Shown: in pieces, positions 57,489 through 64,000 of the stretch
How the letters are laid out: each line of letters opens with the position of its first letter
How positions within the stretch are numbered: position 1 is the first letter of the stretch
Assembly (NCBI GenBank): GCA_963716745.1
Contig: OY970320.1
Span: 1,312,001-1,376,000 of the forward strand
Length of the DNA: 64,000 bases
Source of the DNA: an uncultured Gemmatimonadaceae bacterium
Lineage (GTDB): Bacteria; Gemmatimonadota; Gemmatimonadetes; Gemmatimonadales; Gemmatimonadaceae
Direction: 5' to 3'
The notes under the pieces: model-generated
The model's input: only the letters and a program-made list of their open reading frames with translations
The model's database searches: none
What the model was told of the DNA's origin: nothing
Translations under genes and position numbers: made by a program

Positions 57489-57742
57489 TGCGCACTTCGG
57501 TGATCTCCGGCACGCGGAGGCGGAGGTGCGCTTCGATGCCGGCGCGGAGTTCTGTGGCGGTCATGGTGCAGTCGGGGCAGTCGCCGGCGATGCGGAGGAT
57601 GGTCACGCCTGTTGCGGAGTCGAAGGCAGAAGAGCGCGAGGTCCATTTTTTCGATGTGCAATAGCGGACGCATGCCTTCTATTGCGGCGGCGATGCGCCG
57701 GGAGATATCGGCTGGGTCTGGTTTCTTGTTGAATAGTGCCAT
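57481..57742 (-). CDS. NifU C-terminal domain (Nfu-like) protein (frameshift near 57630)
   Basis: Shifted frame reads GVTILRIAGDCPDCTMTATELRAGIEAHLRLRVPEITEVRNA*. Confidence 0.8.
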
Positions 57743-57801
57743 GAGAAGGAATCTATGCGGGTTCGCGAAGAACTGCGGTGCTTGCCACCAGCGCGCTTAG
57801 C

Positions 57802-57960
57802 GTTGCAGCAAACAGCAAACAGTCACGAGTGACCGCCAGTCAACAGTTCTCAGTCAACAGGTCACAGAAAGCAGTCCCATGCTCGATCCGTTTTCTGTGA
57901 GCTGTGAACTGTTGACTGTAGACTGGCAGTCACTCGTGACTGTTTTCTGTTGACTGCAAC
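57802..57960. repeat. ~160-bp palindromic element built of ACAGTCA-like heptamers (family B, copy 1)
   Basis: GTTGCAG...ACAGTCACGAGTGACCGCCAGTC...TCACAGAAA / TTTTCTGTGA...GACTGGCAGTCACTCGTGACTGT...CTGCAAC. Confidence 0.95.
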
Positions 57961-57990
57961 TCTCACGCCCTGGTGGCCCGGCAGTTGTCG

Positions 57991-59023
57991 TTACCCCTCC
58001 AAGAAAGCTCGCGCCGCGTCAACGACTTTATCTCGCACTTCCTCGAGCCGCCCAGCAATCATCGCCCCCGCCGCCCGGGCATGCCCTCCACCCCCGAACT
58101 GGCGAGCGAATGCATTCACATCCACCCCACCCGTACTCCGAAAACTCACCTTCACCTGCCCATGCCCAAGATCGCGGAAGAACAATGCCATCTTCGTCCC
58201 CGCAACACTGCGCGGATATTCCGAGAGACCGTCAAGATCCTCCGATTTCACGTCGTATTTCTCGAGCACGCCCGCCGGCAGCGTGATCCACGACAAGATT
58301 GTGCGCGGCATCCACTTGCAAGGAATCCAGCGCGTCGCGCAACAGATGCAATCGCCCGATGCTCACCTGCGCGTAGATGCGCCGATACATTTCCTCCGGC
58401 TCCACGCCCGCCGCGAGCAATTGCGCGGCCACGGCGTGACAGCGCGGCGACGTATTCGAGAATCGGAATCCACCCGTGTCCGTGAGCAGCGCGGTATACA
58501 ACGCGCGCGCGATGTGCGGCGTGATCTCCAATTCCATCACGCGCGCGAGATCGAATACCAACTCCCCGGTCGCGCATGCCGCGGTGTCGGTCACGATCAC
58601 CTCGCCCGGCGGCTCGGCGGCCGGCACGTGATGATCGATCACCAATTTCGGACCCTTGAACGCGCGCACGGTGTCGGCCAGTGAGCCGAGCCGTTTCACG
58701 TCGCTGATATCGAGCACCACGAGAATGTCCGCGCCCGCGAGTGCCTTCACGCCGTCGGCGCTGCGATCGGTCACGCCATCGAGCAGGAAGGAGAACAATC
58801 CCGGCCAGGGCGTGGGATTCACAATGCGCGACTTCACTCCGCGCTGCGCGAGGAGCAGCGCGAGCGCCGCCTCCGAGCCACAGCCGTCGCCGTCGGAATT
58901 GATGTGCGTGCTCAACACCGCCGTCATGCCCGGCTTGAACGATTTCGCGAGCCGCTCGAGCGCCTCTTTGCGCGCGTGCGGGATGGCGAGCGGACTATGG
59001 AGTGGTGGAGTCTTCGGCGTCAT
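57991..59023 (-). CDS. nrnA: DHH/DHHA1 phosphoesterase (oligoribonuclease NrnA-like), frameshift near 58305
   Basis: HINSDGDG, IDHH, TDTGGFRF, KVSFRS, GGGGHARAAG. Confidence 0.9.
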
Positions 59024-59096
59024 TCATGGAGGGCGAAAGCCAAGCGGCGCCCGCAAACCATCGCGGGCGCCGCTGGAAACATAATGCCTGCGCGCG

Positions 59097-60557: not shown

Positions 60558-60663
60558 CGGACTCCTGACTTCATGGTGTAGAGGGACTGATGTTGATCTA
60601 CCATACGCTATACGCGCCCTTACTTGACCAGCCGCGCTATCTTCTCCGTCGAAATCGCCTTTG

Positions 60664-62608
60664 TCAAGGCGCGACACCCTTCAGCGCGCTCTCGCACGCC
60701 TTCTGCAGCGCCTTTCGAAATCCACGCACATGATCCGGCGCCGGCGGCGGGCTCACGAGGAACGGATCCATCACGGTGGAGCGAAGCACCACCAGCCCAC
60801 TCGCGCCGTTCGCCTTCCACTCCGCCGGCGTGCAAACGCCTAACGCCTGGAGCAGTGGATCCACTGCGCCGTCATACATGGGACTTTGGAATCGCGTGCG
60901 CGTGATGATGTACTCCGGTTGCGCACCCGGCCGCGCGAGACTCATGCGCTCATAGATCGCCTCATTGAACGCATTCACCGCCGCCAGCGTTGTGAGCGAC
61001 GGATGATGCATCACCCAGCAGACGATGTTGATGTCCGGCTCCGGCAGCATCACGGCGCGGAATTCGCCGAGTCTCTCGCTCCCGAGCGCGGCGTGCAAGC
61101 CGCTGCGCGCCGAGCACGCTGCGCTCGATGAGATGGCCGTATCCCTTCTCGTTGAGCGGCAGAACTTTGTGACTGAGCCACACGCTCGCCGCGCTCGCGC
61201 CGGGCTTCGACCCCTCGAAGATGTATCGCCCAAGGAATCGCTCTTCACTCGCTGAAGTGCCGCCCGTCTCGCCCACGGGCGCGAGATACGGCGGATCGGT
61301 GCTTACCAAGTCCCGCGCGCGGCGGTCCCGCAGCAGGAAGGCGCCCGCGGGATACGGACAGTAGCCGAGCTTGTGCGGATCGATCGTCACGGAGTCGGCG
61401 CGCGACAGCGCCTCCATCGCGCGCACCCACTCCTCGGTGGGCCAATCGAGCCCCAGCAGCGACGCCCTGATCTCGGTCGCGCCGCGTCGCTCGTTGTGTT
61501 CGGTCCATGTGACGCTAGCGGCGTAGCCTCCGTAGCACGCATCCGAATGCACGTGATAGGTGACGCCGAGCTCTGTCTCCGCGCGTTCGCGCACCGCGAG
61601 CACCGCGTCGAGGCGGTCCACCGCGCTCTCTTCGGTGGTGCCGCAGACGCTCACGCACGCCATGATCGGAATGTTCTTCGCCGAATGATCGCGCACGCGC
61701 TCCCAGAGGGCGGCGGGGTCCATGCGATAGTTCGCGTCGACCGGCACGTGCACGATCTGATTGGACCCGATGCCGAGCGCCCGCACGATCTTCTCCCACG
61801 AGTAATGCGCGGTGGCAGCAACGAGCACGACGCCGGCGGGCAGCGGATCGCCGTAGGCTTTGCTGAGCCGCCGCGCGTAGTCCTGGTAGCCGACGGTGGC
61901 GAGCGAGTGTTCGCTGAGCGCTTGCTGCACGCGCTCGCGCGGCGCGGCGTCGAAGAGCGCATGCCAGAGATCGAGCGCGGCGGCGTTCGTGATGTTCACG
62001 AGCTTCCAGAGCGGCAGCTCGCGCACGGGCGCGCGCGTGCCGCCGGGCAGGGCGACATCGAGTGATACGCCCAGCTCGCTCGCCGCGCCCGCGACGGCGA
62101 TCGGGAGATAGGCGATGTTCCGCGCGATCCAGAGCGCCTCGAAATTCGCGACCGTGCCGCCCGAGGTGATGTGACCCCACGAGGAAGAGGGATCGTAACC
62201 GATCATGCGCATGAGATCGGCGGCGACCTCCAGCTCGAGCCGCGTAGTGACGGGCGAGCCTTCGAAGGCGACGTTGTTCGGATTGTAGAGCATTGCCGCG
62301 AAATAGCCGAGCTGGCTCGCGAGCGTTTGCTCGAAAGACATATGGCCCTTATAGCGGCCACTGAAGAAGGGAACGCCGCGTTTCAATTCCGCGAGGAGAC
62401 CCATGAGTTCTTGGGTCATGGTCGCGACGGCGCGTTCGTAGCCTTCACTGCGCTTATCGGTCTCGCGGATGGTGAAGCCGTCTTCGGGATGGAAATTGCG
62501 GCGCCAGAAGACGTGGTCGCGGAGGGACTCGACGATGAGGCGTTCGAGGAGTTCCGCGTTCTCAGCGCGGGGCCCTAAGAACCAAGCGGGGAGAGCTGGA
62601 TTTGGCAT
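60664..62608 (-). CDS. Group II PLP-dependent decarboxylase (tyrosine decarboxylase-like), frameshift near 61100
   Basis: FLGPRAEN, GHITSGGTVANFEALW, HSDACYGGY, DPHKLGY, EGSKPGA; C-terminus EPDINIV...LRSTVMDP in the second frame. Confidence 0.88.
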
Positions 62609-62616
62609 TCTGATCG

Positions 62617-62772
62617 GCAGCTAACAGTAAACAGTCACGAGTGACCGCCAGTCGACAGTCAACAGTCAACAGCTCACAGAAATCAGTCCCGCGCGCGATC
62701 CGTTTTCTGTGACCTGTTGACTGTTGACTGTCGACTGGCAGTCACTCGTGACTGTTTACTGTTGACTGCAAC
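62617..62772. repeat. ~155-bp palindromic element (family B, copy 2)
   Basis: Highly similar to 57802-57960, including the loop CAGTCCC...CGATCCG, in the same orientation. Confidence 0.95.
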
Positions 62773-64000
62773 TCAAAGTGAGTAGTTAGGCGCTTCGCGC
62801 GTGATCGTGACATCATGCGGATGCGATTCGCGCAGTCCCGCAGTCGTAATGCGGGTGAACTCGGTATCCGTGCGCAGCTCGGCGATATTCGCGCACCCAG
62901 TATATCCCATCCCGATCCGCAGCCCGCCTACCATTTGATAGATCACATCCCCAACAGGCCCTTTATACGGCACCCGCCCCTCGATCCCTTCGGGCACCAA
63001 TTTTCTCGCCGACATCTCGCCTTCCTGGAAATATCGATCAGCACTCCCATCCTGCATCGCGGATAACGATCCCATTCCCCGGATCATCTTGAATCGCCGT
63101 CCTTCGAGCAGGAACGATTCGCCCGGACTCTCCTCCGTGCCCGCGAGCATCGAGCCCATCATGACACTGCTCGCACCCGCCGCGAGCGCTTTCACGATAT
63201 CGCCGGAATATTTCACGCCGCCGTCGGCGATCACGGGTATATCGCCCGCGCCTTCCACCGCCTCGAAGATCGCCGTGAGCTGTGGCACGCCGACACCGGT
63301 CACGACGCGCGTCGTGCAGATCGAGCCCGGACCCACGCCCACTTTCACCGCATTCACTCCGCGCTCCACCAGCGCGCGCGCACCGTCGCGCGTCGCGACA
63401 TTGCCCGCGATCAGCTGCACGTCCGGCAGGATCGACCGCAGGTCCGCCGTCGCGCGCAACACGCCCTCAGAGTGCCCGTGCGCGGTGTCCACCACGAGCG
63501 CATCGACACCCGCGTCCACCAGCGCGCGCGCCCGCTCGCGATAATCGCTCCCCGCCCCGACCGCCGCCGCCACGCGCAGCCGCCCGTGCTGGTCCTTGTT
63601 CGCGTTGGGATACTGCCGGCGCTTGTGGATGTCCTTCACGGTGATGAGGCCCTTCAATTTCCCCTTCTCGTCCACCACCGGCAGTTTCTCCACGCGATGC
63701 TTGCCCAGGATCTTCTCGGCTTGCTCGAGCGTCGTGCCAACCGGCGCGGTCACGAGCTTGTCCTTCGTCATCACGTCGCGCAGCGGCTGATCGAAATTGC
63801 GCTCGAACTGCAGGTCGCGGTTCGTGATGATCCCCACGAGCTTTCCATCACGGTCGACGATCGGCACGCCCGAGATCTTGAACCGCATCATGAGCGCGTT
63901 CGCCTCGCGCAGCGTCGCGTCGGGCGCGAGCGTGATCGGGTTCAGGATCATCCCGCTCTCGGAGCGCTTCACGCGGTCCACTTCGGCGGCCTGACGGTCG
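62773..64000 (-). CDS. guaB: IMP dehydrogenase, 5' truncated by window edge
   Basis: CBS pair, [28 protein letters not shown]. Confidence 0.97.

Follow-up and report, generated by a model that had tools for sequence, protein, structure and literature searches.

Strand-specific base composition in the flanks of an intergenic palindrome family in a Gemmatimonadaceae genome

REP elements are short units, 20-40 nt long, whose 5' tetranucleotide is conserved, and bidirectional intrinsic terminators consist of an A-tract, a hairpin, and a U-tract. According to a recent preprint, the REPs of E. coli stabilise transcripts and serve as bidirectional and as partial Rho-dependent terminators; it gives a C>G skew as typical of Rho-dependent terminators while describing the REP motif itself as free of it, and mentions 306 bidirectional intrinsic terminators in E. 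coli (bioRxiv 10.64898/2026.03.23.713779). Strand-asymmetric mutagenesis also flanks human meiotic double-strand-break hotspots, where one study measured an excess of new mutations that extends over about 2 kb (PMC7615360).

The window analysed here is a stretch of 64,000 nt from the 3.29-Mb genome of an uncultured Gemmatimonadaceae bacterium of soil. It contains two members of a palindrome family (family 4) that occupies 40 loci in this genome, 29 of which are full palindromes. Like REPs and BIMEs, these are dispersed, intergenic, imperfect palindromes without a poly-U tail that are usable both ways and lie mostly after genes (a gene ends at the element in 25 of 33 confidently framed flanks), and a Rho-type C>G composition occurs near them. 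Unlike REPs, their arms are about 70 nt long (60-90 nt) and built of 7-nt, CAG-phased repeats, no RAYT (Y1 transposase) gene was found (zero matches to PF01797 in a genome that forms a single contig and has a marker-gene completeness of 89.8%), and the C>G zone lies outside the repeat, at synonymous sites within about 300 nt of the adjacent coding sequence on either side.

In sequence, the flanks resemble rut regions in having a C-rich, G-poor window of about 80 nt in the outward RNA (C/G 2.67, G 0.17) and a rho gene in the genome, but their zones extend over 5' ends that are translated and over the antisense strand of 3' ends, and they are paired symmetrically about a hairpin. As at the human hotspots, C changes on the strand running into the centre, where the asymmetry flips (PMC7615360); here, however, the host is a bacterium, the scale is about 300 nt, and there is no present mutation excess. 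Replication-associated GC skew shares the plus-to-minus sign seen at a terminus, with G exceeding C toward the site, whereas this genome has forty local flips in both replichores and a four-fold skew of about +0.45 against a weak chromosome-wide skew. In bidirectional intrinsic terminators, too, a hairpin is bordered by sequences of complementary composition and the signal is therefore the same in RNA from either strand, but their asymmetry is of A versus T over about ten bases, and here it is of G versus C over hundreds. The pattern is apparently new to description.

Skew halos flank the family 4 palindromes

Element 1 (57799..57965, no strand; limits by iterative blastn) is an imperfect palindrome whose arms (57799-57870 and 57892-57963) form a 72-nt inverted repeat at 83% around a loop of about 21 nt, and each arm terminates in a small hairpin and a T-rich tail scored as terminator-like. 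A comparison of element 1 with Rfam returned nothing at gathering score, only sub-threshold look-alikes of miRNA hairpins. Element 2 (62611..62775, no strand; iterative blastn and inverted-repeat search) is an imperfect palindrome that separates the stop codon of guaB from the next gene's start codon; as RNA, it has a predicted fold of -137.8 kcal/mol (z-score -17). Copies of the family are intergenic (coding fraction 0.02) and share about 77% identity.

The left halo of element 1 (57500..57798) is G-rich and C-poor on the plus strand, with a skew of +0.23 to +0.29. Beneath it is a minus-strand ORF (57437-57742) that is NifU-like on reading its translation and looks frameshifted; in one metagenome contig, a base is missing at 57626, in the region of this ORF. 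Within 350 nt of element 1, two ORFs are frameshifted. The right halo (57966..58400) is G-rich and C-poor on the minus (coding) strand, with a plus-strand skew reaching -0.47, and covers the 3' part of nrnA (57991-58311). The last 100 codons of nrnA have a four-fold C of 0.15, versus 0.39 in the gene body and 0.44 and 0.37 in the same region of two relatives that lack the family (G001 and G003, respectively).

The left halo of element 2 (62180..62610, plus strand) lies over the 5' end of a PLP-decarboxylase-like gene (60962-62608, minus strand, 548 aa), the sense strand of which is C-rich and G-poor there. Codons 5-105 of this gene have four-fold G of 0.13, C of 0.75, and a skew of -0.70, against -0.06 in the gene body and +0.06 at the 5' end of the G003 gene. 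The right halo (62776..63260, minus strand) lies over the 3' end of guaB (62773-64221 in genome terms), where the coding strand is C-poor; four-fold C is 0.23, compared with 0.35 in the gene body, 0.46 in G001, 0.45 in G003, and 0.40-0.49 in six more distant relatives. The preliminary description of the window had reported a flip of G/C skew at the palindromic elements from hand counts of 50 G/26 C (57541-57660) and 48 G/28 C (62481-62600) on the left and 19 G/51 C (58081-58200) and 21 G/50 C (62881-63000) on the right; these counts were exact, and the flip recurs across the 40 loci of family 4. The atypical codons it had pointed out are also there, with GGA TAT ACT GGG in frame in guaB, and third-position GC is 0.70-0.77 in halo flanks versus 0.85-0.88 at ordinary gene ends.

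The halo is real and linked to family 4. Read toward the element, the flanks are G-rich and C-poor over about 300 nt on both sides. Across 80 flanks, the skew falls from +0.29 at 60-120 nt to +0.21 at 120-180 nt and is back at baseline by about 450 nt, and GC drops to 0.58-0.62. Such values are rare, as only 1.1% of 120-nt windows genome-wide (3.29 Mb) have an absolute skew of at least 0.3 and 0.14% one of at least 0.4. An unbiased scan of the genome places 12 of its 18 strongest plus-to-minus flips on family 4. The mean half-flip is +0.209 for family 4 versus +0.026 for 504 element-free gene boundaries (sd 0.055, maximum 0.206); 24 of the 29 palindromes exceed the 95th percentile of these boundaries (0.124) and 22 exceed the 99th.

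What the flanks have in common is a depletion of C on the strand whose 5'-to-3' direction leads into the element. Four-fold C on this toward strand is 0.18-0.23 in halos, compared with 0.41-0.46 at ordinary gene ends, and the four-fold skew is +0.41 to +0.49 in all gene-arrangement classes, compared with +0.06 and 0.00 at ordinary ends. A and T are about equal at four-fold sites in halos, and there is therefore no T excess. The halo is found on both sides of elements, in both replichores, and with every neighbour orientation. The chromosome-wide skew is weak, with a cumulative G-minus-C swing of about 12,900 over roughly 1.6 Mb and a minimum at 1.90 Mb, and the forty local flips have an equal, two-sided form on either side of this minimum. 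No oligomer was enriched beyond composition in a search of 58 flanks, in which the top words were generic GC-rich codon phases or leftover element ends.

Other palindrome families differ in this respect. Recurrence of the flip had been described by eye around 17369, 39597, and 46351; these positions belong to other families, and what recurs there is weak or one-sided (half-flips of +0.11 and +0.13, with the control 95th percentile at 0.124). The first is a palindrome of family 3 (17369..17474; 30 copies, 41-nt arms) with a half-flip of +0.11, and this family has a weaker halo (mean half-flip +0.101). The second (39596..39812) belongs to family 6 (22 copies, 61-nt arms) and has a skew of 0.00 on the left and -0.26 on the right; family 6 overall has no halo (mean half-flip +0.029), and neither do family 10 palindromes. 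No comparable flip occurs at 4445 or at tight operon junctions, as had been described. A halo is present in four families, of which three have arms of at least 50 nt and the fourth, family 3, has its 41-nt arms; halo size correlates weakly with the number of paired bases (rho 0.26).

The halo is polar with respect to single arms and lies mostly on their outer side. Thirteen short loci include nine solitary arms, the other four loci belonging to two arm pairs. We count skew on the outer side alone in six of the nine, among them the R-type arms 750715, 753411, 2226644 (weak), and 2351401, and the L-type arm 2350868, which has no flip on its right flank. The R-type arm 781697 is most skewed on its outer side, but its left flank is negative too. 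Among the remaining arms, 1724256 is skewed on both sides, 1726447 has no skew, and 750085 is at background.

Conservation and substitution within the halos

Elements and halos occur at shared sites in G002, G004, and G005 and are thus conserved in four species. The site of element 2 is the same in all three, although in G004 the sequence after the frame's stop looks like a cut-down remnant (the G004 guaB frame was called from a guaB match that stops at residue 450). The derived halo states are common to at least one of these three genomes at 26 of 29 sites in guaB and 14 of 15 in nrnA. In G001 and G003, the extra skew is absent in 17 of 21 comparisons, and 10 of 13 flanks are consistent (sign test p = 0.007).

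All rate contrasts that follow rest on modest counts, parsimony polarisation, metagenome-assembled genomes, and our own gene caller. On the deep branch to the element-bearing clade, synonymous change in guaB is 33/77 in the flank versus 27/163 elsewhere, led by C>T and C>G, and in nrnA it is 16/48 versus 21/86, with nine C>T changes. The tips show otherwise. Four-fold divergence is flat with distance from the element in both the G000-G002 and the G000-G005 comparisons. On the G000 and G002 tips, which are the branches with the best-preserved elements, C loss is 25/344 near elements and 361/4506 far from them (odds ratio 0.90), with no excess, and C>T is 8/344 versus 107/4506, which rejects a 2.5-fold excess (P = 0.0016). 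Total four-fold change on the same tips is lower near elements (100/1578 versus 796/9706; odds ratio 0.76, p = 0.010), and the toward strand gains C about half as often (30/1234 versus 243/5200; odds ratio 0.51, p = 2.8e-4). G was lost 59 times and gained 25 times in these halos. A present mutation excess is absent from the halos.

On the G004 branch, the relation is reversed. At nine loci assessed in this genome, the element has an identity of 0.71-0.76 at four, is absent or nearly so at another four, and is a solitary arm of 0.96 identity at one. Change within the halos is 44/259 versus 142/1697 (odds ratio 2.24, p = 5e-5), and it runs against the halo, with toward-strand G lost 32 times and gained 7 times. 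Halos thus erode faster where elements decay, at about twice the background, as would be expected on release from a costly constraint. The halo looks maintained rather than the product of ongoing mutation.

Readings of the halo

We tentatively read the halo as a maintained, arm-polar signal, for which a REP-like, two-way, Rho-assisted terminator is the most likely use. Each arm would own one side of the halo and keep the strand read outward G-poor and C-rich for roughly 150-300 nt past its outer end; the complementary strand, which runs toward the element, would therefore be C-poor. The signal would be written mostly in the synonymous sites of whichever gene is there. A transcript that passes the hairpin would then expose a long G-poor, C-rich stretch with the composition of a Rho loading site, and a palindrome with its two halos could act between genes as a REP-type two-way terminator or attenuator and as a protector of transcript ends. 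We infer selection as the maintainer, with Rho and transcription as its agents. The best 78-nt window of the outward RNA has a median C/G of 2.67, G of 0.17, and C of 0.45 and starts about 70 nt from the element edge, and a 78-nt window with C/G of at least 2 is present in 53 of 58 flanks versus 12.6% of 990 control flanks. This resemblance of the outward RNA to Rho-loading sequence suggests the REP-like two-way terminator, and a rho gene is present (PF07497, 119.8 bits in a 459-aa frame). No RNA run that contains the window was found.

Several observations on the same flanks point the other way. Against a terminator, the halo is equally strong upstream and downstream in tandem gene pairs, and downstream genes have a strong halo in their translated 5' ends. 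Ribosomes should block Rho in translated regions. Against maintenance, dozens of synonymous sites per flank would need selection, and simple selection against C predicts faster C loss, at odds with the odds ratio of 0.90 (25 events). In addition, several palindrome families with arms of similar length lack a halo, such as family 6; two of 13 flanks are skewed in family-free relatives too, and the halos on the G000 and G002 tips lose G more often than they gain it.

A possible but less probable reading is the site-directed mutational halo of the preliminary description, in which a break, a nick, or a stalled polymerase repeatedly exposes the strand 5' of the element and cytosines are lost, either still today or as a past imprint. 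The part of that proposal that concerns geometry stands, as C is depleted 5' of the element, exactly as expected for 5'-to-3' resection or for a gap left unreplicated on the 5' side of a hairpin in the template. The halo is two-sided, present in both replichores, independent of gene orientation, strongest at synonymous sites, accompanied by GC loss, and decays with distance; the deep-branch excess led by C>T and C>G, the arms of at least 50 nt in three of four halo families, the weak paired-base correlation, and the two frameshifted ORFs beside element 1 fit it as well. Human meiotic break hotspots offer a precedent (PMC7615360). One-sided halos at solitary arms are not predicted by a mechanism that requires the whole hairpin, but an arm-encoded, strand-specific nick would also make them.

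The part that concerns active mutagenesis did not hold up. An excess of substitutions near elements, polarised against relatives, had been expected, and the flat divergence, the tip odds ratio of 0.76, and the rejected C>T excess go against an active halo. Slower change near intact elements and faster change near decaying ones is the reverse of what an element-driven mutator would produce. The near equality of A and T, and the absence of a halo from family 6 (despite its 61-nt arms) and from family 10, also count against mutagenesis, and a pure fossil leaves the halved gain of C unexplained. Past single-strand mutagenesis is a live rival to the maintained signal.

KOPS point toward dif, Chi serves break repair, and RecA prefers GT-rich tails. 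A DNA-level polar signal of this kind, in which the G-rich strands that point to the element would steer a protein or serve to load it and the function would lie in the chromosome rather than in RNA, is unlikely. The halo is symmetric on DNA regardless of the direction of transcription, polar for each arm, and maintained across species, as such a signal would be, but no oligomer is enriched beyond composition in the 58 flanks, and a candidate protein was not found.

More broadly, family 4 palindromes may possibly impose a strand-specific composition, arm by arm, on about 300 nt of neighbouring sequence, through repeated opening or cutting or through a polar DNA signal. If opening or cutting were the cause, the halos would parallel, in a bacterium, the strand-asymmetric mutagenesis of meiotic break hotspots; if a polar DNA signal were, the flanks would be read by a translocase or repair machinery. 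Either way, conserved genes, guaB and nrnA among them, would be having their synonymous code rewritten by a repeat that is selfish or domesticated.

It is more improbable still that the skew came first and that elements or short-repeat hairpins settled at pre-existing plus-to-minus flips, for example in old terminator regions. The family-free G001 and G003 are skewed too at two of 13 flanks, namely the left flank of 997931 and the 5' end of a gene resembling POR, and several orthologous sites in these genomes carry other hairpins or 7-nt repeat arrays. However, the 17 of 21 comparisons without the extra skew include the 3' ends of guaB and nrnA and the 5' end of the PLP-decarboxylase-like gene, among others; six more distant genera have no such skew in guaB; and the largest half-flip at element-free boundaries is below the family 4 mean.

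An ordinary bias of codons or amino acids toward either end of genes, the caveat attached to the preliminary description, is refuted by the matched controls and very improbable: its sign fits a weak genome trend (mean coding-strand skew -0.045 at 5' ends and +0.05 to +0.095 at 3' ends), but the 504 boundaries average far below family 4, the observed effect is five to ten times too large, the four-fold effect appears next to family 4 only and is missing from the same codons in relatives, and the toward-strand sign is identical at 5' and 3' ends.

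Skewed flanks of an intergenic palindrome family

Two members of the intergenic palindromic repeat family 4 lie in the window (genome positions 1312001-1376000), element 1 at 57799-57965 and element 2 at 62611-62775, in a genome that consists of a single contig (3.29 Mb, GC 0.669). Both are imperfect palindromes with arms of ~70 nt and a loop of ~21 nt, the arms are made of 7-nt CAG-phased repeats, and the RNA fold of element 2 has -137.8 kcal/mol (z = -17). An Rfam search of the elements returned only hairpin look-alikes, all sub-threshold. Each arm of element 1 carries a small 8-bp hairpin (57818-57837 and 57925-57944) and, after it, an outward-facing T-rich tail, an arrangement that scored as terminator-like in element 1 and not in element 2; outward sigma-70-type promoters were sought in the arms and none were found. 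Iterative blastn identified 40 family-4 loci genome-wide. An independent inverted-repeat scan yielded 343 palindromes with arms of at least 24 nt, nearly all intergenic and many composed of 7-9-nt short tandem units; 11 families had at least 12 copies (12-60), and family 4 is represented by 29 full palindromes. Palindromes in the window are also found at 2220-2421, 17369-17474, 39596-39812, and 53344-53453.

For ~300 nt on each side of a family-4 element, the strand running 5'->3' into the element (the toward strand) is G-rich and C-poor, a pattern we refer to as the halo. Averaged over the 80 flanks of the 40 loci, each oriented 5'->3' into the element, base frequencies at 60-120 nt are 0.39 for G and 0.22 for C (genome: 0.335 each), and 0.18 for A and 0.21 for T (genome: 0.165 each). 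The mean toward-strand skew, +0.29 at 60-120 nt, declines to +0.21 at 120-180 nt and is back at baseline by ~450 nt; at 20-nt resolution it forms a plateau of ~+0.32 from 40 to 140 nt outside the palindrome, and GC is 0.58-0.62 up to 240 nt from the element. The four hand counts of G and C beside the window elements, on which the preliminary description based its proposal of a site-directed mutational halo, were exact on recount. Halos are two-sided on either side of the cumulative-skew minimum, slightly stronger on the right in both cases, which excludes replication direction as the cause insofar as an origin assigned from weak cumulative skew allows. No Chi- or KOPS-like words are enriched in the halos beyond composition. 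Nor are the flanks part of the repeat or partners in pairing: within a locus, the two sides show no complementarity (mean z 1.66; a few high values occur close to element edges), and flanks of different loci are not homologous (8 of 1,200 pairs exceeded the shuffled maximum).

Skew at ordinary gene ends has the sign of the halo, but is only -0.045 over the initial 30 nt and between +0.05 and +0.095 over the final 60 nt. We measured the size of the skew change across each site (half-flip), which at 504 element-free boundaries had a mean of +0.026 (sd 0.055, 95th percentile 0.124, 99th 0.160, maximum 0.206) and at 43 convergent controls a mean of +0.056. The mean of the 29 family-4 palindromes was +0.209, with 24 above the 95th and 22 above the 99th percentile of the controls (Mann-Whitney p = 4e-18); the two window loci have +0.33 and +0.19.

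Three other palindrome families have weaker halos (+0.115, +0.101, and +0.074), family 8 is marginal (+0.057, p = 0.015), and six families, one of them with 61-nt arms, are indistinguishable from controls. The recurrences suggested by eye at 17369, 39597, and 46351 do show some skew, but it is weak or confined to one side, and the palindromes there belong to other families; position 4445 and tight operon junctions indeed lack a comparable flip. All families are similarly diverged (72-82% between-copy identity), so that age cannot account for halos in some and not in others, and hairpin size is not the sole cause (rho 0.26 over the 343 palindromes, no correlation inside family 4). The sole intact PDDEXK_3 (GxxExxY-type) gene, at genome positions 1094823-1095158, is bracketed by palindromes of 9-nt repeats; these adjoining repeats belong to family 2, which has no halo, and the nuclease was thus rejected as the halo agent.

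Genes, codon positions, and single arms

All four genes flanking elements 1 and 2 are minus-strand genes: two of them, guaB and nrnA, terminate at the elements, and a PLP-decarboxylase-like gene and a small ORF, NifU-like by reading of its translation, begin just past them. The plus-strand flip therefore corresponds to coding strands that are G-rich at 3' ends and C-rich at 5' ends. A 743-nt gap without a gene called by our in-house caller spans element 1 and its flanks, including the 3' part of nrnA and the NifU-like ORF; genes in halos are missed or shortened by callers that have learned bulk codon usage.

An amino-acid-level model supplied the reading frames and was confident for 33 of 58 flanks; the 25 ambiguous ones were left out of codon counts. 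The effect falls mostly on third codon positions. On the coding strand, third positions of genes running toward an element (n = 25) have G 0.47, C 0.24, A 0.11, and T 0.19, compared with G 0.42, C 0.43, A 0.07, and T 0.09 at the ordinary 3' ends of 970 reference genes, and those of genes running away (n = 8) have G 0.22, C 0.56, A 0.12, and T 0.11. Toward-strand skew at four-fold sites is +0.41 to +0.49 in convergent, tandem-upstream, tandem-downstream, divergent, and partner-unframed flanks alike. These sites have C 0.18-0.23 and G 0.52-0.63, with overall A ~0.11 and T ~0.12 (ordinary gene ends: G 0.45-0.46, C 0.41-0.46); four-fold C is halved, and GC3 is down by 0.1-0.15.

Thirteen short loci were listed, four of which belong to two arm pairs, leaving nine solitary arms, and in six of these the skew is restricted to the outer side. 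The right-type arms at 750715, 753411, and 2351401 have an outer skew of -0.37 to -0.41 and that at 2226644 a weak one of -0.17, with left flanks between -0.14 and -0.02 in all four; the left-type arm at 2350868 has +0.26 on the left, its right flank showing no flip, and the right-type arm at 781697 is strongest on its outer side (-0.46) with a left flank that is negative too (-0.28). The other three are skewed on both sides (1724256), not skewed (1726447), or at background (750085). Two loci, at genome positions 769476-769667 and 1083861-1084023, have their arms inside-out (right-type, then left-type). The first (769476/769593) retains a flip of normal sign on both sides, and the second (1083861/1083969) has a clear flip on the left only and a weak one on the right.

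Related genomes and substitution history

We compared the source genome (G000) with five related genomes. The congeneric G002, G004, and G005 (85-94% DNA identity) have elements at matching sites, and the searches run found no family-4 copy in G001 and G003 (75-83% identity). At the 3' end of guaB, four-fold C is 0.20-0.23 in element-bearing genomes, 0.46 in G001, 0.45 in G003, and 0.40-0.49 in six more distant genera; at the 3' end of nrnA it is 0.15-0.21, 0.44 in G001, and 0.37 in G003. Four-fold skew at the 5' end of the PLP-decarboxylase gene is -0.52 to -0.78 in element-bearing genomes and +0.06 in G003, the only comparison without the family. Seven further flanks were added, with near-minus-far skew per genome as the measure, tallied by hand, and five loci with ambiguous frames omitted from the codon counts. 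The source genome exceeded a family-less relative in 17 of 21 comparisons (sign test p = 0.007), within a sample of one element-bearing clade, which as kin represents one origin per locus, and two species without the family. By flank (n = 13), ten were consistent, one was mixed, and two were contrary (the 5' end of a POR-like gene and the left side of 997931), with the skew present in G001 and G003 too.

The sites in G001 and G003 are not always empty, since several orthologous sites, including those of genome positions 2160531 and 2403363 and of window element 1, hold other hairpins or arrays of different 7-nt repeats. These units vary by species, several share an AGTC core, and it looks as if the repeats at one site are replaced or homogenised over time.

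The genes at the window elements have further peculiarities. A one-base frame shift at 58290-58300, ~325 nt from element 1, breaks nrnA and places its DHH (58232-59023) and DHHA1 (57991-58311) parts in different frames. The break is common to G002 and G004 and absent in G005, G001, and G003, and one metagenome contig lacks one base at 58299; it is probably real and not an assembly error. The small ORF (57437-57742) has a NifU-type start and then, by reading of the translation, goes out of frame; at 57626 a base is missing from one metagenome contig. The metagenome (Logan) contigs matching the region are short and thin, with a best share of 0.27, and no RNA run is listed as containing it. The PLP-decarboxylase-like gene (60962-62608) sits between guaB and an amino-acid permease gene in the source genome and G002-G005, and in G001 and several other genera a permease-like gene directly follows guaB.

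The preliminary description expected an excess of substitutions near elements. Such an excess is present on the deep branch, scored in G000 at synonymous third positions where G001 and G003 agree. In guaB, 33 of 77 sites changed in the halo versus 27 of 163 in the gene body, the halo changes including C>T 10, C>G 8, C>A 3, G>A 6, and G>C 4; in nrnA, the counts were 16/48 versus 21/86, with C>T 9. Derived states are common to at least one other element-bearing species in 26 of 29 (guaB) and 14 of 15 (nrnA) cases; being mostly shared by the four element-bearing species, the halos are older than their split.

Recent branches were followed over ~70 kb of synteny, with tip changes polarised by G004 and G005 in toward-strand orientation. 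Four-fold divergence at 30-150, 150-300, and >300 nt is 0.165, 0.136, and 0.16-0.18 between G000 and G002, 0.311, 0.376, and 0.32-0.39 for G005, and 0.280, 0.234, and 0.19-0.22 for G004. On the G000 and G002 tips, where elements are best preserved, the expected excess is lacking: all changes amount to 100/1,578 near (30-300 nt) and 796/9,706 far (≥450 nt) from elements (odds ratio 0.76, p = 0.010). Loss of C is 25/344 near and 361/4,506 far (odds ratio 0.90, p = 0.68), C>T 8/344 and 107/4,506 (0.98, p = 1.0), gain of C 30/1,234 and 243/5,200 (0.51, p = 2.8e-4), and G>C 27/1,040 and 217/4,800 (0.56, p = 0.005); with a 2.5-fold excess, eight or fewer C>T events have P = 0.0016. Halos on these tips lose more G than they gain (59 vs 25), yet loss per G site is slower in the halo (0.057) than far away (0.078). 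In G004, where nine family loci were assessed, four elements have 71-76% identity to those of G000, another four are missing or almost so, and a solitary arm is kept at 96%. Change on this branch is faster in halos (44/259 vs 142/1,697; odds ratio 2.24, p = 5e-5) and directed against halo composition, with 32 toward-strand G lost and 7 gained and C gained at 15/203 vs 28/908 sites. All of these are parsimony counts under skewed composition, modest in number, from metagenome-assembled genomes with an in-house gene caller and frame model.

Away from elements, G<->C transversions are the commonest recent four-fold change (~0.045 per site versus 0.024 for C>T; G000-G002). Point mutation does not usually give such a predominance; recombination, or switching between two preferred codons, may lie behind it.

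Maintained signal or mutational scar

On the G004 branch halos erode at twice the background, which suggests that carrying the halo has a cost in codon usage, against which it is held. Three observations would follow from a maintained signal: C is gained half as often, change is slower near intact elements, and it is twice as fast where elements decay; the polarity of single arms would be accounted for as well. As to its nature, we tentatively rank first, as a plausible reading of the sequence, a REP-like two-way Rho-assisted terminator or attenuator. A transcript leaving each arm would be G-poor and C-rich, a Rho-type composition: the best 78-nt outward window has a median C/G of 2.67 (G 0.17, C 0.45) and starts ~70 nt out, and outward C/G is at least 2 in 53 of 58 flanks versus 12.6% of 990 control flanks. 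The genome encodes rho, a gene ends at the element in 25 of the 33 framed flanks, and the arm tails of element 1 and the REP precedent point the same way. A preprint describes the C-rich/G-poor composition for Rho-dependent terminators and credits E. coli REPs with partial Rho-dependent termination, with stabilisation, and with termination in both directions (bioRxiv 10.64898/2026.03.23.713779). Intrinsic and Rho termination are reported to cooperate at 3' UTRs. Termination has been shown for the E. coli REPs, whereas for family 4 we infer it from composition. Against a terminator, the halo is as strong upstream in tandem pairs and in translated 5' ends, the extra C loss predicted by selection is not seen, and other palindrome families have no halos.

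Strand-asymmetric damage centred on the element, present or past, as the preliminary description proposed, is a somewhat less likely reading. It matches the geometry exactly and has a precedent at human meiotic hotspots (PMC7615360). An active element-driven mutator should speed up change near intact elements, chiefly through loss of C; the opposite is observed. Were the halo purely the fossil of a past episode, its conservation would be explained, but not the halved gain of C, the slower change at intact elements, or the doubled rate at decaying ones.

Synonymous sites of housekeeping genes are usually read as the outcome of genome-wide mutation bias and translational selection, both of which this repeat family overrides within ~300 nt. 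The pattern is kin to REP-like elements and Rho-type signals; literature searches, judged from listings and abstracts, turned up no account of a local GC-skew halo around bacterial intergenic palindromes. If it is a termination signal, GC-rich bacterial terminators can be composite, with the Rho-loading part hidden in adjoining coding sequence, which would bear on how terminators are predicted, how expression is modelled from codons, and how genes are recoded. A mutational scar would be, to our knowledge, the first local site-directed strand asymmetry of such kind in a bacterial chromosome.

Local skew is also a cheap means of finding such elements. A blind genome scan for the strongest plus-to-minus flips gave 18 peaks, 12 of which fall on family 4; at least four of the other six are on other palindromes and one is beside a 300-nt poly-A run. 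The highest score in the scan came from this region, which comprises the poly-A run (genome positions 2783054-2783354) and a nearby 74 nt of A/T only (2783521-2783595), both probably artefacts of assembly or masked sequence.
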